Shown here: in pieces, positions 631-13,526 of the stretch | Layout of the letters: every line of letters begins with the position of its first letter | Position numbering within the stretch: position 1 is the stretch's first letter | Virus genome (UHGV): UHGV-1806156 | Strand: one strand, 5' to 3' | Length of the DNA stretch: 13,526 nt | DNA from: a virus | Made by a program: the position numbers and the translations under genes | Notes under the pieces: generated by a model | Seen by the model: only the letters and a program-made list of their open reading frames with translations | The model's database searches: none | Told to the model about the DNA's origin: nothing

Positions 631-780
631 GTGGAAATTACTGATGCAATAGCGATCATCAACCTGGCTGTACTGTGGTGCGGTGTTGCCTACATAGCCG
701 GAGTGACTGCAATCGACAATCTTGAAGAAAAAATGATAGATAAATACAAAAAGATTGTTGACAATTTGACGAATGTCTGA
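631..780 (+). CDS. Small ORF, 49 aa, GTG start, predicted single transmembrane helix (VEITDAIAIINLAVLWCGVAYIAGVTAIDNLEEKMIDKYKKIVDNLTNV)
   Basis: GGAGG at 621-625 sits 5 nt before GTG 631, stop TGA at 778-780. Hydrophobic N-terminal stretch. Below the 60-aa cutoff of the ORF track. Confidence 0.3.
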   Translation: MEITDAIAIINLAVLWCGVAYIAGVTAIDNLEEKMIDKYKKIVDNLTNV

Positions 781-786
781 TAAAAT
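758..786 (+). promoter_or_regulatory. Sigma70-like promoter candidate (-35 TTGACA 758-763, 17-bp spacer, -10 TAAAAT 781-786), likely driving the operon starting at 913
   Basis: Near-consensus hexamers with 17-bp spacing, about 125 bp upstream of ATG 913. Confidence 0.45.
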
Positions 787-1141: not shown

Positions 1142-2038
1142 ATGGCAAGTAATTACGGGGAGGTTTTTAATCCCCATTTCGAACGCCTCATTCAGTATAC
1201 TTTTGATAAACCAGTTGCAACAACAATTGCTAATAAAAAGACTGGAAAAACAAAAGAAAGATTTAAGTTAGACCTGACGGAGGTTACAATTTATGGAAAA
1301 ATGGCAGGTTTTCATTTAAACGGGCAAGAAATATTTATCTCAGAGCAGACCTTAGCAAAAATATGTGGAGTGAGCGATAGAAAAATCCGTGATTCGATTA
1401 AATCTCTAGAAAATGCCGGGCTTATTTCTAAAGATAATCGGAAAGGCATGTCTAATATTTACAAACTACTAATTACTCCTTCACAGGTTTGCAAAATGTG
1501 TGACGCTCAAGGAATACAACCTATGAGCAATGCAGGTGGTGAAGATAAACAGCCTCAGGAAGCCCCAAAACAAGCCGCACAGCAAGCTAAAAAGGCTAAA
1601 GTAGTGCAATTGCCTACCCAAGACACTAAAGCGCCTCAAATTAACGCTGTTAGTGACAAGCCACGCCGGGGCCGTCCTGTGAAAGATGTAACCGATGGAG
1701 GGTGGATCGCCCTGGGTGAGAGTGAGGCTAAAGGCATAATGCGATCACTGTGGGAAAGCAAATACAAAGATTTAAACAAACGTCGCCCGATCCTTTTGTC
1801 AAAGATTCAGGAGGATTTTTACACCACAGAAGAGGTAAGCCGACATAAAGGGAAAATAGAGGGTGAAATCTGGAAACCGGAAGAATACTGGCATTTAACC
1901 AGACCTGTGTTTATTTTTGCAAATAAGCTTATTGGGATGGGATTTGAAATATTGTTAGATAAAACCTGCGGAGATTATCCCGAAATATTGTGGAGAAATG
2001 TTAGAAAAAATAAAAAAGGCATTTTAGAGTTTAAATAA
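1142..2038 (+). CDS. Putative replication initiator-like protein with winged helix-turn-helix, 298 aa
   Basis: ATG at 1142 preceded by GGGGGA RBS, right after the stop of the 913 ORF; the track's 1085 start is an upstream in-frame extension. The segment FISEQTLAKICGVSDRKIRDSIKSLENAGLISKDNRKG resembles the wHTH of phage and plasmid replication initiators. Function from motif recognition only. Confidence 0.45.
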   Translation: MASNYGEVFNPHFERLIQYTFDKPVATTIANKKTGKTKERFKLDLTEVTIYGKMAGFHLNGQEIFISEQTLAKICGVSDRKIRDSIKSLENAGLISKDNRKGMSNIYKLLITPSQVCKMCDAQGIQPMSNAGGEDKQPQEAPKQAAQQAKKAKVVQLPTQDTKAPQINAVSDKPRRGRPVKDVTDGGWIALGESEAKGIMRSLWESKYKDLNKRRPILLSKIQEDFYTTEEVSRHKGKIEGEIWKPEEYWHLTRPVFIFANKLIGMGFEILLDKTCGDYPEILWRNVRKNKKGILEFK

Positions 2039-2316: not shown

Positions 2317-2805
2317 ATGTTCAAATCTAATCTTTCTGATTCTCAATTCGAAAAACTGGTAGCACTGCAGAAATATCTTCCCAGTGATGATCAACCAACA
2401 CGACAGGCTAAACACTTATTAGTCGAGGGCTTTACCCCTGAATTCGTGGCGGAATATACAGGCGTTAAACTTGATAAAGTCCAAAAACTATATAATGAGT
2501 CCTGGAATCCACGGTGTCGAGTTCCCCTCAGTGTCTATAACGACATAGATAGAGATAAAAATGTCTTCGAAGATCGCCGCCGCAAATCTCTTTTAATGTG
2601 GAATTGTGGGATGAATATTGAAGAGATAGCAAAAGAATTAAAAGTAACCTGCTTTCATATATGGGGCTTGTTGAGTGAAATCCTGCCACGTAAGGAGCTT
2701 AATCAACGTTTGCCTAAGCCCGGTAGTCGTGCTTATCGCGAATTTATATTCATCTACCGCCGCCATAGAAATAAAGTCCAGAAAGCAATGGCCCAGAAAG
2801 CTTGA
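2317..2805 (+). CDS. Putative DNA-binding regulator with two HTH-like segments, 162 aa
   Basis: GGAGA RBS before ATG 2317. Two segments with HTH character: GFTPEFVAEYTGVKLDKVQKL and GMNIEEIAKELKVTCFHIWGLL. Confidence 0.5.
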   Translation: MFKSNLSDSQFEKLVALQKYLPSDDQPTRQAKHLLVEGFTPEFVAEYTGVKLDKVQKLYNESWNPRCRVPLSVYNDIDRDKNVFEDRRRKSLLMWNCGMNIEEIAKELKVTCFHIWGLLSEILPRKELNQRLPKPGSRAYREFIFIYRRHRNKVQKAMAQKA

Positions 2806-2878: not shown

Positions 2879-3322
2879 ATGTCTCAAATCGCTAAATTAT
2901 TATCCCAGGTTATCAAAGCTATCGACGCTGAAGATTCAAAAGTTCGCCAGGATCTTTTAGATGGCAAGTTTACCAACACCCTGGCATTTACCCGTGACAA
3001 AGAGCACTTCTTAAAACACAGGCATCACGCTTTTCCTGAATGCAAGTCCGCTAATGGTGATGTTTTCTATGTCGATTTGGTGGTTATGGCATGTAGGCTG
3101 TGGATGATTCAGGACCTTATGCGCCAACACGGTGATGATCCTCTTATCAGCATGTGGAACAGCGCCCAGGATGGCTTTGTGATTGCTGCCTTATCCAAAT
3201 CAATGATTGAGGCAGAAGGGGCAAGCCTTCAGAACATGGCAGATCTCTTTGAAATAAGCGTAGGAATGATGCAGACCATGCTCCAAGCTGTCAAACCTCT
3301 CAAACTGGTTAATCTTGATTAA
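2879..3322 (+). CDS. Hypothetical protein, 147 aa
   Basis: AAGGA RBS before ATG 2879; no recognisable family. Confidence 0.55.
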   Translation: MSQIAKLLSQVIKAIDAEDSKVRQDLLDGKFTNTLAFTRDKEHFLKHRHHAFPECKSANGDVFYVDLVVMACRLWMIQDLMRQHGDDPLISMWNSAQDGFVIAALSKSMIEAEGASLQNMADLFEISVGMMQTMLQAVKPLKLVNLD

Positions 3323-3382
3323 GCTATTGATAAATAAGCACTCCCCATTTTTTGGGGGGTGCATCAATGAGAGGATATGCCT

Positions 3383-3766
3383 ATGAATATTGAAGAAATG
3401 ATAGTTGAATTCGAAGAGGGTGATTTCCTGGAAGAAGGGGAGTTTAGTTACTCCCATTTTAAACAGGCGTTATTTAGCAGCGATGATAAACCACACGTTA
3501 GTGATCTTAACGACGATGATTTATGTCGTTGGGTATGCACCCGCTTAAATGAAGATGGAAAGTATACAGGCCAAAACTTTCCAAATCTCTATTTCAAAGC
3601 ACAAACATTTGAGGAAGGGCAAAGAGTGAAAAACCTGGTCGATAAAATGCTGTCAGCCGGATATTTGCATAAAGAATTATTAAATCCTAAAGCTGAAAGC
3701 AAGCGCCATTATATTTTTGTGTGGACTATTGGCGATAAGTGTCCACTAAGACGCAAAGGCAAATGA
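3383..3766 (+). CDS. Acidic protein, 127 aa; possible tail assembly chaperone by position
   Basis: GAGAGGA (3369-3375) is 7 nt before ATG 3383; the track's ATG 3377 is too close to the RBS. Acidic N-terminus and position two genes upstream of the tape measure gene. Function is positional inference only. Confidence 0.4.
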   Translation: MNIEEMIVEFEEGDFLEEGEFSYSHFKQALFSSDDKPHVSDLNDDDLCRWVCTRLNEDGKYTGQNFPNLYFKAQTFEEGQRVKNLVDKMLSAGYLHKELLNPKAESKRHYIFVWTIGDKCPLRRKGK

Positions 3767-3767
3767 T

Positions 3768-4004
3768 ATGAATACCTACGAAAAGATTTATCAAAAACTG
3801 GTTAAGGACTCCGAAGACACGCCCGAAGGGGTGACAGTAGGTCACCTGCCAGAGGCAGCGAAAGAGGGGGCCACCATTATTAAAAGTGGCTCCCACACAG
3901 AAGGCCTCTCAATCGAAGAGCTGGCGGAGAAATATAATATTGATAAAGAGGCCCTGAAAAGGGCTATTTCATTATCAAAATCTTTAAGACAGGGCGAGGT
4001 ATAA
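3768..4004 (+). CDS. Hypothetical protein, 78 aa, translationally coupled between the acidic protein and the tape measure gene
   Basis: Starts 1 nt after the preceding stop and ends 1 nt before ATG 4006. Confidence 0.45.
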   Translation: MNTYEKIYQKLVKDSEDTPEGVTVGHLPEAAKEGATIIKSGSHTEGLSIEELAEKYNIDKEALKRAISLSKSLRQGEV

Positions 4005-4005
4005 A

Positions 4006-6153
4006 ATGGCAATGAAGGAAGTAGCCAGACTAACAAACGTTATTTACTGGGACTCTGATAAATCCTCCTGGCGAAAAGAAGTTAAACGGCTTGAGGATTA
4101 TAAAAAATCCTGGAAGAAAGCTACCGACGATATAGCTAAAGCTGATTTTAAATCTAATCAGGCTGTGCTCAGAACACAAAGAACACGCGCTAAGGTGGAA
4201 GAGCAGATAGCCAGAGCTCAGAGGAAACAACAGGAAGCACAGAAGAAACAACGTGCTCAGGCTGTCAGCCGTCTGACCGGGGGCAACAATGCCGAACTTA
4301 ACTCTATGCGCAAGTTCTACCAACAACAAGCCAGAGAAGCCGCCAGACAACAAAAACTGTTAGATCGTAGTGTTGGAGATGTTCAGCACAGAAAAGCACG
4401 TGTAGGGGCCAACAGTGCACGAATCAGCAGCATGTTTGATGGCTCCCTGGTTGCTCAGTTCCAGGGGCGCATTCAAAGAGTTAATGCTGATTATGCTAAA
4501 GGGGCTATAAACCTGCAGACCTATAATCAGAGGATGGCCCGACTCAGATCTGAAATGAAGATGGCAACAGCCGAAGCCGGAAAATTCCAGAGCAGACTAG
4601 ACAGAGCTGCGGCCGCAGGCTCCAGGCTGCATGACAACCTGGGGAAACTGAATTCCACACTGGGCAAGATAGCCATTGGCCTTACTGCCGCTGGCTGGGG
4701 TGTTCAGCGTGCTGTTAGTGGTGCTATGGGTAGCCTTGCAGATCGCAACAGTGCTTATTTCGGCTTAATGTCACAGAACAAGGATGATAAATCAAAAACT
4801 GATCAGCAGATGGCTTTTATCAAGAACACAGCCTACACCTACGGGATGGATCAGCGTGAGATGGAAGGCGGCTACATGCGCTTTGCTGCAGCTACCCCCA
4901 CCATGAAGGAATCTGATAAGCAGGCTCTCTTTGAGGCTATGGCTATTAAAGGCCGCTCAGTGGGTGCTACTGGCGAGCAACAGAACAGGGCGCTTGTTGC
5001 GGTCCAACAAATGGCTTCAAAAAATAAAGTCATGGCGGAGGAGCTGCGTGGGCAGCTGGCAGAAGCCTTTGCAGGCTCACAACAGGACTTCCAACAGGCC
5101 GCTATTGATGCCGGAATCATCAAAAATACCCAGGAATTCGATAAAGCCCTTAAAGATGGCAAAATCACCCTGGACAAGCTACTTCCTTCCCTAGTGAAAA
5201 TTTGGGGTGCTGCAAAAGAAACTAAAGCTTTTGCTGAATCCATGAAACAGCCAGAAGTAGCAATGCAGCGCATGAAAAACAGCTTTAACGAGCTGGCGAT
5301 TCAGTTTATGGGTGTTGTGGATCCTGCGGATGGCGTTATTAGCTTATCTGAATCTCTGATCTCCATCTTTGAAGACCTCACCACTGATATGGACGGCAGC
5401 GGGAGCGCGGCAAAACAGTTCGGTGAGGCAGTCGGGTCTGCCATGCGTGAGATCATGTATTGGGTAGGCTTCGCTAAGGGATATATTGAGGTCAAGGCTA
5501 AAGAGTTCGGCATGACCGGATCAGAGGTTGGCGAGCTTATCGGGAAACTGGTAGTCGGCTTAGCTGGTCTGAAAGTTATTACCACACTGCTTTCCCCTCT
5601 AACCGGATTTGTTTCACTTGTCACCCAACTGATTTCTCTGATAGGCAAGATTCCAGGTCTGGGCAATCTCGTTAAGGGTGCTGGCGGGGCAGTCGCTGGA
5701 AGCCCAACAACAGCATTAGCCGCTGGCAGTGCCGCAGGTGTGGGTGTTGGTGTCGCTGGCGCACTAGGCGCTAAGACGGTAGGTGAGAAGTTCAGAGGAT
5801 GGATGCAAAGCAAGGCTGATCAGTTCGGGGAGTGGGCTAAATCTAAAGGCCTGCTTAGCGATGAACAGGACGCTATGACCAAACCGGGGGCCTATAACCA
5901 TAGCTACATCAACAAGGGAGCTTCCTTTAATCCATATCCAACCATTAGCCCTTCACGTCCTACTCCTAGCACTGGTACGGCTATTCAGAATGGCGGATAT
6001 CAACCAGTCCAAGTAAATGTAGCCCCACAAGGTGAGATTTCCGGCAAATGGGAGATAACCATCGATGAGGGGGGAATTGCCAGGGTGATCCAGAAGGAAG
6101 TTAGCGATCAGTTGGATTGGAAAGCCACACAGGAATCTAACCAGCTTTTCTAA
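4006..6153 (+). CDS. Phage tail tape measure protein-like, 715 aa
   Basis: Long Q/R/K/A-rich helical N-terminal region, a central segment that reads like a tape-measure domain (AAATPTMKESDKQALFEAMAIKGRSVGATGEQQNRALVAVQQMASKNKVMAEELRGQLAEAF), and a Gly/Ala-rich hydrophobic block (LAGLKVITTLLSPLTGFVSLVTQLISLIGKIPGLGNLVKGAGGAVAG...). Recognised by eye, not by search. Confidence 0.6.
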   Translation: MAMKEVARLTNVIYWDSDKSSWRKEVKRLEDYKKSWKKATDDIAKADFKSNQAVLRTQRTRAKVEEQIARAQRKQQEAQKKQRAQAVSRLTGGNNAELNSMRKFYQQQAREAARQQKLLDRSVGDVQHRKARVGANSARISSMFDGSLVAQFQGRIQRVNADYAKGAINLQTYNQRMARLRSEMKMATAEAGKFQSRLDRAAAAGSRLHDNLGKLNSTLGKIAIGLTAAGWGVQRAVSGAMGSLADRNSAYFGLMSQNKDDKSKTDQQMAFIKNTAYTYGMDQREMEGGYMRFAAATPTMKESDKQALFEAMAIKGRSVGATGEQQNRALVAVQQMASKNKVMAEELRGQLAEAFAGSQQDFQQAAIDAGIIKNTQEFDKALKDGKITLDKLLPSLVKIWGAAKETKAFAESMKQPEVAMQRMKNSFNELAIQFMGVVDPADGVISLSESLISIFEDLTTDMDGSGSAAKQFGEAVGSAMREIMYWVGFAKGYIEVKAKEFGMTGSEVGELIGKLVVGLAGLKVITTLLSPLTGFVSLVTQLISLIGKIPGLGNLVKGAGGAVAGSPTTALAAGSAAGVGVGVAGALGAKTVGEKFRGWMQSKADQFGEWAKSKGLLSDEQDAMTKPGAYNHSYINKGASFNPYPTISPSRPTPSTGTAIQNGGYQPVQVNVAPQGEISGKWEITIDEGGIARVIQKEVSDQLDWKATQESNQLF

Positions 6154-6204: not shown

Positions 6205-6242
6205 AAAAAAGCCCCTAAGTGTTAACAAAGGGGCTCTTCTCC
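6205..6242. terminator. Hairpin terminator between convergent operons (stem AGCCCCT 6210-6216 / AGGGGCT 6229-6235)
   Basis: 7-bp GC-rich stem with 12-nt loop. On the minus strand it is followed by a run of six T (plus-strand A 6205-6210); on the plus strand by a weaker T-rich tract. Confidence 0.5.
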
Positions 6243-6266
6243 GGTATCCTTTTGATGCGGGGCGAA

Positions 6267-6310
6267 CCTGCTAACAAAAATCAACCTCTCGCGAGACTAA
6301 TGTTAGCAGG
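6267..6310. other. Stem-loop with perfect 10-bp stem (CCTGCTAACA / TGTTAGCAGG) whose 24-nt loop carries TCAACCTCTCGCGAGA
   Basis: Inverted repeat read directly. The loop contains the 10-bp palindrome TCTCGCGAGA and matches the leader motif at 10547 and 11089. Confidence 0.4.
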
Positions 6311-6655
6311 TTGCCGGAAGGTAAGTCAACTCCGGCCTATAAACCTTAAAGCGACTATAAAATCGCCCCGCCAATTGTGATGATCCGACCTTTGAGGCGG
6401 GTCCGGTGCCCAGGGGGGTGCAGTGATGCACAAACCAGGCAACGATAAACAGGCTAACAGTGATAGCGGCGCTCTCTCAGCGCACTAAATCCTAACCAGT
6501 CCGGGAAAGAGGCTGGCTCTATCGACCGCTCATGCACGGGACAATGCATACCTGATAAAGGATTCTCACAAGGGACCAATCGCGAGAAAAAGAAGTGGAA
6601 AGGGGCTGATTTGTGGTGTATCACTACGGCCTCAAAAGAACACTATTGTCTTTTT

Positions 6656-7114
6656 TCAGCCTCTCCCAACATTTGACCAGTATTTGATTGCACCGATCAA
6701 ATCATCATAGTGGCGCATTGCATCATTGAAGCCTTTATAGCTTGCCCATTGTGGGGAAACCTTGTTATTGCTGAATTGCCCACTAATCAGGATAGTCTCC
6801 AGAATGTCGGCATATCGCTTACCAATACGCTTTCTGACGGCCTCAGAGCTCCCACCCTTTACGATTGCATTAATCAGGGCTTTTGTGTGTCTCAGGCTCT
6901 CATAGAGCATTGCAGCGTGGGCAGATTCCATAAAGGAGCGCTTAGGCAAATCACCCCACCCCTCAGAGTGGATAGCCGCCAGTGTGGCGTAATTCAGGCC
7001 GCTATAGTGCTTTCCGTCATCCCAGCCAACCGCTACACCTTCCATCTGTGAGAGCTCTTTATGCAGCTTATCCATCATGCGCTTGTCTATGGTGCAACGG
7101 ACTTTCGGACTCAT
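6656..7114 (-). CDS. HK97 gp10-like head-tail (neck) family protein, 152 aa
   Basis: Segment GVAVGWDDGKHYSGLNYATLAAIHSEGWGDLPKRSF fits the pattern I associate with the HK97 gp10 family. GGAG RBS upstream; ATGA overlap with the preceding gene. Confidence 0.45.
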   Translation of the reverse strand: MSPKVRCTIDKRMMDKLHKELSQMEGVAVGWDDGKHYSGLNYATLAAIHSEGWGDLPKRSFMESAHAAMLYESLRHTKALINAIVKGGSSEAVRKRIGKRYADILETILISGQFSNNKVSPQWASYKGFNDAMRHYDDLIGAIKYWSNVGRG

Positions 7115-7914
7115 TTGTTGATCTCCGTGATGTCATCAAGCAACATGTTGGCCTTATCAATCATCGTTTCGTGGAATTCATTCGACACAACAGACTTATC
7201 ACCTGCGGCAATCTTTCCAGCTGCCTCTCCCTGTGCATATTCCCCGCGATGCTTAGCCCTGGTAGATTTCGTAGCAGCATTGCCAGCGTTACTACCCTCT
7301 TTAGCACTGTTAACAGCACCCTTTTGCTGTGTTTTATTCACCTTCTTACTGTTAGTGAAAACTCCGGCATTTTCGACCATCTTCACCTTGAAGGTGCGGA
7401 ATTCTTCAAAGGTGCAATCGATAGTGATGCAGTCACCGGAGGAAGAGCTACGCTTAACTTCACATTTCGTCATGATGAAGTTCTCAAGGAGTCCGGCATC
7501 TTCACTCACCAGGCTAACCAGCTGGCGCTTGTCTCTCATTTCCATAAGTGCCTGAACAGCGGCAGCAGGGCGCATAGATTCACGGGGATTATCTGGATCA
7601 GTGTTCCGGTCGATGTAGTTCTCTTTCCGGATAATGTGAGGGGAAGAGGTAATAATACCCGTAAAGCTGACAGATTTATCTTTAATGACGGCATGGTCTG
7701 ACATGGTGGTGCCATCTTCTACTGCATAGCTCGACTTTTCGACAGGGAACGAATAACGAACATCAGAGATAGAGTCAAAGAAGATAGCCACATTATCGGT
7801 ATAGTTGAAGCCATCCATTATATTTTTGTTTTGTGAATATCCCCCACACATAACAGTGAATGCGGGAGATCTCGACTCAGCTTGTTTTGCAGCTGTCAGA
7901 GCATCACTAGCCAT
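7111..7914 (-). CDS. Hypothetical protein, 267 aa (start placed at the ATG at 7914)
   Basis: Minus ORF 7111..7941 begins at a GTG; the in-frame ATG at 7914 has GGAGG 10 nt upstream. Normal amino-acid composition, unlike the Cys/Ser/Leu-rich plus-strand ORFs it overlaps. Confidence 0.55.
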   Translation of the reverse strand: MASDALTAAKQAESRSPAFTVMCGGYSQNKNIMDGFNYTDNVAIFFDSISDVRYSFPVEKSSYAVEDGTTMSDHAVIKDKSVSFTGIITSSPHIIRKENYIDRNTDPDNPRESMRPAAAVQALMEMRDKRQLVSLVSEDAGLLENFIMTKCEVKRSSSSGDCITIDCTFEEFRTFKVKMVENAGVFTNSKKVNKTQQKGAVNSAKEGSNAGNAATKSTRAKHRGEYAQGEAAGKIAAGDKSVVSNEFHETMIDKANMLLDDITEINK

Positions 7915-8042: not shown

Positions 8043-8303
8043 TTATTTTGCAAAACGATTATGCGCATTCAGGGCTTTTTTGCGGTCCTGGGCTTGTTTG
8101 CGTGCAATAAAATGTTCGAAAGTCTCGGCCCAGGTGCATTTATTATATTCACGGTATTTATGCATAGCCTGGCGGCTAACGTCATAGCAGGCGGCAAATG
8201 TGGAGATACGCAGGAATTCCGGCAGATCCTCGTCATCGATATGGATAATATCAAAAGGCACGTCGTCACGGTCGCCGTATAAAACAATTTTCATAAAAGA
8301 CAC
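8043..8303 (-). CDS. Small HTH DNA-binding protein, 86 aa
   Basis: GAGGTG RBS upstream of ATG 8303. HTH-like segment LRISTFAACYDVSRQAMHKY. Role unknown. Confidence 0.5.
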   Translation of the reverse strand: MSFMKIVLYGDRDDVPFDIIHIDDEDLPEFLRISTFAACYDVSRQAMHKYREYNKCTWAETFEHFIARKQAQDRKKALNAHNRFAK

Positions 8304-9429: not shown

Positions 9430-9765
9430 TTATTGTGCAACACGCAAATCGCCATTGCTGGCAGCAACAACAGCGGCTAAGCCGTCTTTGTCCACATAGG
9501 CCGGATTGATGTAGCAACCTTTGTTCGCAACAACGATAAAGGAATCACCAACTTCAGCACGTTCTACAACCAGCAGCGGAGTTTTATCTGTGTGCGTTGC
9601 TTTAACGAAGGTCTCAACCTCGCCAGCCTCAGTCACCACAACAACAGTGCCAGCCGGAATCTCAGCCTTAACTTTGTTTTTAACTTCAACGTCGCGAATA
9701 CTAAATTGCTCATCTGCGGCGTATGAAATGATGTGTCCGCGTGTGCGGATAGTCATATCTCTCAT
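9430..9765 (-). CDS. Putative head decoration protein (lambda gpD-like), 111 aa
   Basis: AGGTGA RBS before ATG 9765. Small, beta-rich (Val/Thr/Ala/Gly), immediately upstream of the capsid gene as in lambda D-E. Assignment is positional and compositional. Confidence 0.4.
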   Translation of the reverse strand: MRDMTIRTRGHIISYAADEQFSIRDVEVKNKVKAEIPAGTVVVVTEAGEVETFVKATHTDKTPLLVVERAEVGDSFIVVANKGCYINPAYVDKDGLAAVVAASNGDLRVAQ

Positions 9766-10102: not shown

Positions 10103-10248
10103 CTAGCCCTGTAGGGAGAATAAGGAGAATTAATCGACCACTCTAAGATGATCATGGGTAGTGTTATTTATAAGGCGGCACCGCTACCTGGTCGCCTTTA
10201 CTTTGGAGGAAAATACGGCAAATCACCTTCGCTAAATGATTCACGGTA

Positions 10249-10268
10249 TACTGTATATTATATCAGTA
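10249..10268. promoter_or_regulatory. LexA (SOS) box-like palindrome TACTGTATATTATATCAGTA
   Basis: CTG-N10-CAG architecture with flanking TA and an AT-rich core, as in gammaproteobacterial LexA boxes. Lies in the large intergenic region between the capsid operon and the small-peptide operon. Confidence 0.45.
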
Positions 10269-10546
10269 TTTACTCACATTGTCAACACCCTGATTATATA
10301 AATTCTAATAATTAGCGTAGTAACGGTATTTTCAGACTGCTATCAATCCCATCAATACGTCATCTCATCGCATCTATCATAACTTTTTCATTCGTGATAG
10401 ATATCTTTTGATCAATATCAATGTTTTCCGGGGATTTGCCCGGCTATAGTTCGAATCAAGGAAGGGGAGCATTGATAGAGACACCCAAAGGGGTGACTGA
10501 AAGTCACCTGGCATAGCCAGTGAAAGCACCCAACCGAACAAACAAA

Positions 10547-11800: not shown

Positions 11801-13063
11801 TTAATCCGTTTTATGCCACAACCGCCCGGTTGACAGAGTAAGATAGAGTGTGTAACCCTCTTTCGTAATACCAATAAAATCAATAGTTTAGCTCAATTGG
11901 CCTTTTCTCTATTTTTGTCAAATTTAACATACCCTCAAAAACTGCAAAATCTGGCTGCAAGATTATCTGCAGCTGGATTTCTTGCGCCTCAATTTGTGGT
12001 ATCACCCTGACTAGTTTGTGCATAAATTGAACAGTTTTTAACATTTCCTCCTCACCTGGTAACCACACAAAAAGCTAAAAACGAGGCACAGATAATCTTA
12101 GAGGCCTGTTTTCTTGTTATCACTCTGGTAACGTCGTAGAAGTGATTTTGATGAAAGATGACCTACCCTATTACACCCCCATTTTTTGTTATCACAATTG
12201 CATCCTGTGCGGTGTATGGCTATGTGCTGAAAGCGGTCTTATGTGTGGGTGTCAGAAATATCCATTAGCGGTATTAATACCCGTCGGAGATTCGTCTGAG
12301 GTGCCAGGCAGGCGCTCCCCCACCTCCCTTTTTTCTTCTAACAATTCTCAAATATCACACCACTGCCCACCACGTTGCTATTATGTTAATTCTTAAGCTT
12401 TGCTGTATGTTGTGCACATTATTTATTCAGGTGGCTGTACGTAAATTCTGTGCCCACTGATCATGATTTTTAAATCAGATTTTGTAGTGCGCTTTATTAG
12501 TGTAGATAAGATCTATTATGTTAAATGCATCTCTCTCAACACTTAAAATCAATGACTTAGAGGTTAGGATGCACTAACACCCCACACAGCACATTAGACA
12601 TATAGATGTCTATACCCCACATTTTTGATTGTTTTGTAGTCATTCCCCTGATCATTTAACCAGTATAGTTTGCTCCCTGCAGACCACAAAATCGGAATTT
12701 ACATCTGATTAACATAATCTGTTAGCATGATCACCATTACCCACACAACAATAACCACATGTAAGCCTCTTCAGGCAATTTATCGGCGTGTTGGTGTGAA
12801 CAGTCTTTCATGTTCTTTATGTATTCATTGTCCTGTGTGAGGGAAGGATGGACTGCCCCAGGGGCCATACTTATGATGCCCGGTCAACATACCTGTCGAT
12901 AAAATCAAAGGGTGTTGATCTGCATATTTCCCACACATGAGAGGAAATCAAAGCAAAGAGAGAGGAGAGAGGTTTGTTAGTCAAAATAGGTCAATAAGGG
13001 TGTATTTCCACACAGACATGATGAGATAACCTGTCGGTATTTCCTACAACTCTTGCACATACC

Positions 13064-13341
13064 CCGGAAGATTTTTCCGGTGTCTCCCACCTGTGAAGAA
13101 TTTTCACACCTGTAAATCCATACAGCACGGTAAAAACTACCGCACCACCTGTGAAAATATTTTACTACTCCCTTTAGTCATACCCCTTTCAGTCATACTC
13201 AGGCACCACACCCCGGTAAATATTTCCCTACCACCCCGGAGAATTTCTCCGGTGTCCAAGCTGTATCCAATACATACCCCGGAAAATTTCTCCGCACTAC
13301 TACGGAAGATTTCTCCGGTGTACCCCGGAAGATTTCTCCGA
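13064..13341. repeat. Iteron-like array of at least 8 copies of a 17-bp quasi-palindrome (consensus about CCGGARRATTTCTCCGG)
   Basis: Copies at 13064-13080, 13236-13252 (perfect palindrome CCGGAGAATTTCTCCGG), 13279-13295, 13302-13318 and 13325-13341, the last three spaced exactly 23 bp apart. Related variants at about 13094-13108, 13150-13164 and 13214-13226. Confidence 0.6.
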
Positions 13342-13428
13342 CTAATAAATAAAGTAATAGACCACACAATAGATCCCCCCTAACCCCCAAGGGGAATGGG
13401 GAGGGATCAGAGAGTGGGGAAGGTTTTC

Positions 13429-13526
13429 TAAGGGAAAAGCTTAACCCACAAATGAAAGCCTAAAGAGCATGAGCGACTCTTCAGGCAATCTGTGTGGGGA
13501 ACATCGGAGCAGTATGTGAAGTATGA
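13429..13526. repeat. Right copy of the 98-bp direct repeat
   Basis: Matches 1-98 with one mismatch (C at 13482 vs T at 54). Confidence 0.9.

Follow-up and report, generated by a model that had tools for sequence, protein, structure and literature searches.

A circular Escherichia coli plasmid family with its own tail tape measure protein: candidate satellites of rV5-like phages

We analysed the virus genome UHGV-1806156, a 13,526-nt stretch of DNA (hereafter the window), in which a gene for a 715-aa tape measure protein (TMP) follows two small open reading frames (ORFs), termed ORF1 and ORF2. Our preferred account, which we judge to be about evenly poised between right and wrong, is that the window, a complete plasmid, is a phage satellite of rV5-like lytic Escherichia coli myophages, and that it would build chimeric tails on its own TMP. 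This account starts from what can be observed directly, namely the identities of the genes, the completeness of the element, its homology to phages of the helper type and its conservation. A preliminary description of the window, made from its letters, had raised the idea of a satellite with a TMP of its own, and this idea is supported by the completeness of the element, the functions that it lacks, its rV5-like homology and the precedent of the Vibrio PLEs (PMC12987554).

The 715-aa product is matched by profiles from four independent libraries: the Pfam family PF20155 (TMP_3; E 7.6e-13, 49 bits against a cut-off of 41), TIGR02675 (E 1.1e-6, 28.9 bits against a cut-off of 21.35), phrog_5255 (E 4.5e-184) and the solved TMP of phage phiTE (PDB chain 9cuy_W, E 7e-20). 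Their agreement identifies the product, on profile evidence, as a true phage tail TMP, and the profile search called for in the preliminary description thus bears out the tape-measure likeness that it had pointed to. The same description had placed the gene behind ORFs of 127 and 78 aa in a closely spaced plus-strand trio, which we confirm; stop-to-start spacing is 1 nt at both junctions (TGAtATG and TAAaATG). The TMP also possesses C-proximal hydrophobic segments, and a role in setting the length of tails in particles is putative. Within lineage 1, to which the plasmid belongs, the TMP is the fastest-diverging structural gene. A hypervariable cassette lies at window positions 5620-5930, in which two 40-aa blocks fall to 10-20% identity, and the rest of the protein is 87-99% identical among lineage-1 plasmids.

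The window is a closed circle of 13,428 bp, the first 98 positions recurring at its end with one mismatch as an assembly overlap. Circular plasmids of 13.2-13.7 kb with near-identical DNA (92-96% identity) are found in 7 of 5426 complete E. coli genomes, with no chromosomal copies, and PLSDB contains only five records of the family, all from lineage 1 and all classed as non-mobilizable. In a large protein collection the plasmid TMP forms at least 400 clusters at 90% identity; contigs of 13.2-14.2 kb carry all but three of the 120 clusters listed, and the hosts are E. coli, a few Shigella and, in one record, Salmonella. Moreover, the element is present on 13-15 kb contigs in hundreds of E. coli assemblies. 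One record (NZ_CP043822.1, 39,610 bp) consists of three tandem 13.2-kb units that differ by frameshifts, with genes frameshifted in the first and third copies, and is likely to be a concatemer of long-read assembly rather than evidence of multimers.

Genes are arranged in two convergent blocks (Table 1). The plus-strand order is a promoter-like site, a 71-aa ORF, a Rep-like initiator, proteins of 162 and 147 aa, ORF1, ORF2 and the TMP, and on the minus strand a perfect sigma-70 site precedes a 111-aa ORF, the major capsid protein (MCP), an 83-aa ORF, a Dit-like tube initiator and a 152-aa neck-module protein. A helix-turn-helix (HTH) regulator and then a variable cargo gene follow on the plus strand, and about 2.2 kb of ORF-poor noncoding DNA holds five iteron-like repeats that are the probable plasmid origin. 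We scanned 20 ORFs against PHROGs, and ten of these also against Pfam and NCBIfam. The phage-type structural genes recognised in the scanned ORFs are the MCP, TMP, tube initiator and neck homologue only; no terminase, portal, protease, tube, sheath, baseplate wedge, fibre, lysis or integrase family was matched, nor are the complete virion, packaging and lysis modules of an autonomous phage-plasmid present. The same scans did not find parA. The element consequently has the general character of a phage satellite, in which essential virion, packaging and lysis genes are missing and some phage-derived functions are kept, and that of a satellite plasmid, being a small extrachromosomal circle with its own Rep-like gene and iterons that is known from plasmid records only. 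The preliminary description had stated that tail tube and baseplate genes are lacking, which holds for the tube gene but not for the region close to the tail base, given that the tube initiator and neck genes lie 0.5-1.8 kb downstream of the TMP gene on the other strand, the Dit-like gene being the second gene downstream. Such an initiator nucleates the tube where the TMP meets the baseplate.

A specific link to helper-type phages is provided by both proteins and DNA. The best phage relatives of all four structural proteins are rV5-like Vequintavirinae, at 24-50% identity. The tube initiator is 50% identical to the rV5-like 'tail tube initiator', with its best matches in E. coli Vequintavirus, and the TMP is 26.5% identical over 581 aa to the rV5-like TMP. 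Phage MaxTheCat has its tube gene followed by ORFs of 157 and 82 aa, the TMP gene (778 aa) and the tube initiator gene, an arrangement mirrored in the plasmid by ORFs of 127 and 78 aa and the TMP, with the tube initiator next after the TMP but on the opposite strand. Furthermore, among TMP clusters on large contigs the nearest (29% identity) comes from contigs 133-137 kb long, which is as large as a Vequintavirus genome. Members of the Vequintavirinae have circularly permuted DNA and package by the headful mechanism (PMC8407724, PMC7344957).

Two short DNA motifs are common to the plasmid and rV5-like genomes. The first is a 52-nt double palindrome with the consensus GAxACACxCCCxAAGGGGTGAC-N5-GTCACCTGGC-N3-GCCAGyGAAAG, of which the window has two copies. 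It is 84-90% identical to 54-63 phage records, nearly all of Vequintavirus type, and at E<=0.01 its matches are confined to Vequintavirus-type phages, where they sit in a noncoding gap of about 2.5 kb. Phage rV5 has two inverted copies in this region, the second inside an unannotated gap beside iteron-like repeats. The second motif is the 24-mer TTCTTCTAACAATTCTCAAATATC, which recurs with one or two mismatches in the noncoding gap of rV5 and nimi.

Several further observations concern the 52-nt element. Additional copies lie at 3999-4052 in locus L010 and at 4001-4058 and 6206-6256 in L011, and the rV5 noncoding gap (L011 5707-6117) has four iteron-like 25-nt repeats and several inverted repeats beside its copy, as would suit an origin-like region. 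Between lineages, compensatory changes are seen in both stems. A reading of the element as acting through RNA only is unsupported by fold z-scores of -0.9 to -1.8. Its site differs among sibling plasmids (within ORF2, upstream of the HTH gene, or within rep), and its strand is the same in every case. Records labelled 'Campylobacter phage' (MG0656xx; A147, C15, A12a and others), of 128-143 kb, match the rV5-type genes of E. coli phages and the 52-nt element no less closely than genuine Escherichia Vequintavirus phages do, and their host labels look doubtful.

Conservation of the plasmid genes was assessed gene by gene from the ratio of nonsynonymous to synonymous substitution rates (dN/dS) between the window and three sibling plasmids. 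Every gene compared gives a value of 0.0-0.4 (0.10-0.15 for the MCP). In addition, a second lineage from E. coli (lineage 2) retains the gene set and its order on contigs of 14-15 kb, with the TMP 34-35% and the MCP, initiator and neck proteins 48-58% identical, and more TMP clusters at 31-37% identity are found on contigs of 13-20 kb.

A potential mechanism can be sketched from these data. The plasmid replicates autonomously, with a Rep protein and iterons. Upon infection by a helper, the satellite TMP and tube initiator would displace those of the helper in the tail-initiation complex, and helper tube and sheath would then polymerise around the satellite TMP. The resulting chimeric tails, predicted to be shorter by about 9-10 nm (715 versus 778 aa, at some 1.5-1.6 Å per residue), would join heads built from the satellite capsid protein, and the short helper-like DNA motifs would probably let the helper machinery act on the plasmid in packaging, replication or regulation. 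The preliminary description had suggested that such a TMP might serve to change helper tail length; a shortening is indeed predicted, but it is small, and replacement of the TMP rather than a change of length is likely to be the point. By replacing the TMP the plasmid might evade a factor directed against that of the helper, or it might gain an assembly line of its own.

The closest parallel is found in the PLEs of Vibrio, which encode a tail assembly chaperone, a TMP and a baseplate hub protein (BhuB) at 20, 20 and 41% identity to those of phage ICP1 (PMC12987554). PLEs incorporate their own TMP and hub, yielding chimeric tails that are 10 nm shorter, and deletion of tmp in PLE11 abolishes about 99.9% of transduction (PMC12987554). 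Like a PLE, the plasmid would be a satellite of a lytic myophage that carries its own TMP and a baseplate-proximal protein. Divergence from the helper is similar (20% and 41% identity in PLE, 26.5% and 50% in the plasmid), the satellite TMP is shorter than that of the helper (582 versus 677 aa in PLE, 715 versus 778 aa here), and tube and sheath genes are in neither. However, PLE is an integrated island with an integrase that uses the ICP1 capsid protein and has a recognisable chaperone, whereas the plasmid has neither integrase nor recognisable chaperone and carries capsid and neck-module genes of its own. Moreover, PLE resides in Vibrio and parasitises ICP1, and the plasmid resides in E. coli and Shigella and would use another helper group; the comparison was made through the published description.

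Other known systems share individual traits with the plasmid. The Vibrio PISP and cf-PISP (PMC13230959) are extrachromosomal circles of 11-16 kb with a replication gene, capsid genes and an incomplete virion set, and PISP have a PF03864 (capsid E) protein, as does the E. coli plasmid family, in which this domain is recorded on the MCP orthologues of the sister lineage. Yet they combine head and packaging genes with an absence of tail genes, and encode parA along with a small terminase and a protease (or with a full head module), whereas the E. coli plasmid has genes for a TMP, a tube initiator and a neck protein but no recognised terminase, protease or parA. The authors of the Vibrio work report that relatives beyond that genus were not found (PMC13230959), and according to a 2025 review only one plasmid, an inovirus satellite, had been demonstrated to be a satellite (PMC12282955). 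Predicted TMPs are also reported for cf-PICIs and for the EPIPs of Mycolicibacterium (PMC12987554, PMC12822802), the latter of which have altered tail lengths; these satellites differ in being integrative, with integrase, small terminase subunit and connector genes, EPIP helpers are siphophages, and there is no link to Vequintavirinae. The canonical tail-length module, as in lambda (G/GT, TMP, distal tail protein), resembles the plasmid in its succession of small ORFs, TMP and a Dit-like gene and in the usual TMP domain and hydrophobic segments, but the plasmid has no frameshift signal, chaperone similarity, or tube, terminator or baseplate genes, and its Dit-like gene is on the opposite strand. 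Finally, P4, the satellite of P2, is similar in size (about 11-13 kb), in its capacity to exist as a plasmid and in carrying helper-like cis DNA, but it has no homologues of helper capsid or tail proteins, remodels the P2 capsid with Sid and carries the P2 cos site.

Several points weigh against a satellite of rV5-like phages. The TMP and MCP are remote from those of all sequenced phages, with only about 25% identity to their counterparts in known rV5-like ones, and an unsampled relative could be the true helper. The plasmid has no recognised tail assembly chaperone, small terminase or capsid-size factor, and the 52-nt element is undetectable in two of the seven lineage-1 elements examined (L012 and L015). 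Pattern-based scans for relatives of the TMP found none in IMG/VR or among GTDB species representatives, leaving the element without virome support. The small size of the predicted change in tail length counts on the same side, and we infer helper dependence, encapsidation and incorporation of the TMP into tails from sequence.

The strongest competing hypothesis, which we nevertheless regard as unlikely, is that the plasmid is mainly an anti-phage element that is itself unpackaged, its diverged capsid, TMP, initiator and neck proteins acting as dominant-negative decoys that poison rV5-like assembly. Indeed, the proteins likeliest to contact helper parts are those best conserved with respect to the helper (initiator 50%, neck 43-49% identity), the promoter facing the structural block has a perfect consensus, the scanned ORFs include no recognised packaging gene, and blocking of tail assembly is known in satellites and other mobile elements (Rta, PMC12987554; Tai systems, PMC11364771). 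However, a full shell gene and helper-like cis motifs exceed what a decoy would need, the constant size of 13-15 kb across diverged lineages suggests a packaging-size constraint, and interference and transfer are compatible with each other in known satellites, so that a defence role may accompany transfer. PADLOC also offers nothing for a defence role, with no match on three upstream ORFs tested and no significant match on the cargo, where a sub-threshold similarity to PglW (E 0.003) is limited to a 270-aa lineage-2 protein (L008).

Next in plausibility, and likewise doubtful, is a satellite that works as proposed but with a different helper, an unsampled and distant myophage that may be temperate or a phage-plasmid. 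The 24-27% identity of TMP and MCP to rV5-like phages would fit such a helper, as would the finding that no phage in a collection of 50,697 records has a closer TMP than rV5-like phages do. Against this, the 52-nt element matches Vequintavirus at 84-90% and no other phage group at E<=0.01, the best matches of the tube initiator are E. coli Vequintavirus, and PLE proteins are equally far from those of ICP1 (PMC12987554).

The two ORFs upstream of the TMP require separate consideration, given that the preliminary description had noted that chaperone genes normally adjoin a TMP gene and had asked for a check for a slippery site or frameshift between the two. ORF1 and ORF2 are real genes under purifying selection. 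The start of ORF1 is best placed at the ATG at 3383, which is spaced 7 nt from the Shine-Dalgarno sequence GAGAGGA and at which the gene begins in RefSeq siblings; another ATG, at 3377, is just 1 nt past GAGAGGA, a worse spacing. The product has a strongly acidic N-terminus and a pI of 5.4, in line with the acidic character ascribed to it previously. A tail assembly chaperone pair like lambda G/GT, made by translational coupling or an unusual frameshift, would account for this acidity, for stops and starts 1 nt apart and for a position matching the 157-aa and 82-aa ORFs before the TMP in rV5-like phages, and PLEs do carry a tail assembly chaperone (PMC12987554). We consider such a pair improbable, however. 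No XXXYYYZ slippery heptamer occurs in ORF1 or ORF2, and the frame of ORF2, which is +1 relative to ORF1, is open for only 6 codons upstream of the ORF2 ATG. Searches of Pfam, PHROG, NCBIfam and PDB gave neither ORF a chaperone match (with ORF1 as query, the PDB profile search returned noise only), and hhalign comparisons of four families (ORF1, ORF2, the 147-aa and the 162-aa protein) with Vequintavirinae chaperone genes (bas57_0016/17, phiTE_224/225) gave probabilities of at most 0.4%. Furthermore, ORF1 is present in lineage 1 only and absent from lineage 2, and ORF2 has an HTH-like C-terminus and a middle that tolerates an inserted DNA element. At the level of sequence we thus find neither chaperone features nor a frameshift.

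ORF1 and ORF2 look instead like small DNA-binding (HTH-type) or regulatory proteins. The C-terminus of ORF2 has weak HTH matches in Pfam and PHROG, and a RefSeq record calls a 61-aa form an HTH protein; forms of 61 and 82 aa exist in sibling plasmids, and the variable middle is in some plasmids the 52-nt element read in frame. A weak similarity (blastp E 0.007; hhalign E 0.054) links ORF1 with the adjacent 162-aa protein over the latter's C-terminal half, and ORF1 may have arisen by partial duplication of that gene. At the nucleotide level, the start of ORF1 (3383-3416) and an internal stretch of the 162-aa gene (2611-2644) are 74% identical. AlphaFold2 models gave values of the predicted local distance difference test too low for a fold to be read (45.6 for ORF1, from a six-sequence alignment; 43.6 for the 147-aa protein, from a single sequence).

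The least probable hypothesis, to which we attach very little weight, is that of a decaying phage-plasmid remnant in which the TMP gene is a leftover without present role; an incomplete virion gene set and ORF-poor DNA might be expected of such a remnant, but every gene is intact and under purifying selection (TMP dN/dS 0.21-0.28, initiator and neck at most 0.05), gene set and order persist in a lineage with 34-35% TMP identity, and the element has kept a constant size in hundreds of independent assemblies.

On sequence grounds, ORF1, ORF2 and TMP probably form the far end of a longer run of co-directional genes that starts at the plus-strand promoter-like site, about 50 nt past which there is a terminator-like hairpin (835-861). 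The regions surrounding the two promoter-like sites (744-805 on the plus and 10238-10299 on the minus strand) are about 70% identical over 62 nt, with the pattern TGTTGACAAT...TGATAxAAT. This similarity suggests common control of the rep-to-TMP block and the minus-strand structural block. The blocks converge on a hairpin located 3' of the TMP stop, where the preliminary description had placed nothing but a terminator. The hairpin exists, but read on the plus strand it has a folding free energy (dG) of -17.8 and is followed by CUUCUCC, which makes a weak terminator, whereas read on the minus strand it has a dG of -23.2 and is followed by UUUUUUCUU, forming a canonical intrinsic terminator. Because of this stronger dG and the UUUUUUCUU tract, it would chiefly terminate the convergent minus-strand operon.

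Adjacent to the hairpin is a conserved and apparently structured noncoding region, and it is within this region that the sole DNA detected by megablast between lineages 1 and 2 is located (about 80% identity over 160 nt). RNAalifold retains 24-26 of 75-81 predicted pairs through double changes, a figure that derives from three independent lineages only. Neither the window nor the noncoding gaps of the phages had an Rfam match. PLEs carry a conserved small RNA, SviR, that binds helper tail-gene transcripts, and it is speculative, by analogy, that the plasmid region encodes an RNA of this kind. Additionally, a 21-nt motif, AAATCAACTTCTCGCAAAGGG (in degenerate form AAWTYAACYYCYCKC), has four plus-strand copies in the window, at 6278, 9783, 10544 and 11086. 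Sibling plasmids have three or four copies per unit, partly right before start codons, and neither lineage 2 nor the phage loci showed the motif.

Among the remaining genes, the homologues of the neck-module gene in the rV5-like phage and in phiTE are flanked by an adaptor gene and a head-completion gene (218 and 220 in phiTE), and the phiTE homologue, phiTE_219, is not among the phiTE chains in PDB. The 111-aa protein shows no similarity to phage decoration proteins by hhalign. The cargo slot after the HTH gene varies between elements (L005 888-2811 and L008 12146-13694 correspond to the cargo gene of the window), and in one lineage-2 element it holds a 373-aa nuclease-like protein with T5orf172, MUG113 and zinc-finger domains.

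Table 1 Features of the 13,526-nt window and their coordinates
Feature	Position	Strand	Remarks
Strong sigma-70-like promoter	758-786	+	TTGACA-17-TAAAAT with TG
Replication initiator-like protein (winged HTH, lambda O-like / HTH_36)	1145-2038	+	PF13730 E 2.5e-7; PHROG E 1e-10; dN/dS 0.27-0.34
162-aa basic protein, weak HTH signals	2317-2805	+	45% identity in sister lineage
147-aa protein, HTH-like C-terminus	2879-3322	+	about 22% identity in sister lineage; dN/dS 0.11-0.15
ORF1, 127 aa, acidic N-terminus	3383-3766	+	lineage-1 specific; dN/dS 0.16-0.26
ORF2, 78 aa	3768-4004	+	conserved N-terminus, HTH-like C-terminus LSIEELAEKYNIDKEALKRAISLSK, variable middle; dN/dS 0.21-0.23
52-nt element, copy A	3815-3865	+	inside ORF2; core AAGGGGTGAC-N5-GTCACCTG common to copies A and B
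Tape measure protein, 715 aa	4006-6153	+	identified by profiles; hydrophobic segments aa 511-546; hypervariable stretch about aa 540-640; dN/dS 0.21-0.28
Hairpin between convergent operons	6210-6235		canonical terminator for minus strand, weak for plus
Conserved, apparently structured noncoding region	6240-6640		strand undecided
Neck-module protein, 152 aa	6656-7114	-	phrog_222 E 8e-29; homologue of Bas57_0011 (43%) and phiTE_219 (49%); dN/dS <=0.05
Dit-like tail-tube initiator	7111-7914	-	PF21821 E 7e-25; phiTE 9cuy_K E 2e-34; dN/dS 0.01-0.03
83-aa conserved protein	8043-8294	-	39% identity in sister lineage
Major capsid protein, lambda gpE type, 344 aa	8384-9418	-	phrog_29 E 4e-21; 24% identity to rV5-like MCP
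111-aa protein	9430-9765	-	slot of head decoration gene in rV5-like phages; position only
Perfect-consensus sigma-70 promoter-like site	10257-10285	-	12/12 with TG; faces capsid-initiator-neck block
52-nt element, copy B	10475-10526	+	88-90% identical to 63 Vequintavirus-type phage records
HTH regulator, 86 aa	10797-11057	+	40-45% identity in sister lineage
Variable cargo protein, 195 aa	11115-11702	+	signal-peptide-like N-terminus; no family match
24-mer TTCTTCTAACAATTCTCAAATATC	12333-12356	+	invariant in 7/7 lineage-1 elements compared
Five iteron-like repeats of about 23 nt	13060-13349	+	
98-nt copy of positions 1-98	13429-13526		assembly overlap of 13,428-bp circle

Taken as a family, these elements have an even chance, in our judgement, of being a new group of satellite plasmids in E. 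coli, comprising several lineages sized 13-20 kb, which would parasitise rV5-like phages, supply a capsid shell and a tail core (TMP, tube initiator and neck factor), and carry helper-mimicking DNA motifs and possibly a structured RNA beside the TMP gene. Our literature searches, which covered the plasmid accessions as well as satellites in connection with rV5 or Vequintavirus, turned up no account of the element. A satellite-encoded TMP with a baseplate-proximal protein is known already, as is a satellite plasmid; what would be new is their combination, the host and the helper group. It was only in 2026 that experiments demonstrated satellite-encoded tape measures and chimeric tails, in one Vibrio system (PMC12987554). 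If our account is correct, these would be the first satellite plasmids outside Vibrio and the first satellites tied to Vequintavirinae, as well as an E. coli counterpart of the chimeric-tail strategy of PLEs, providing a second and genetically tractable system for which standard collections already contain the likely helpers (rV5 and the BASEL Vequintavirus phages). Cocktails for biocontrol and therapy, directed at E. coli O157 among other strains, include rV5-like phages, and it would be of practical importance if a resident plasmid hijacked or blocked these phages.

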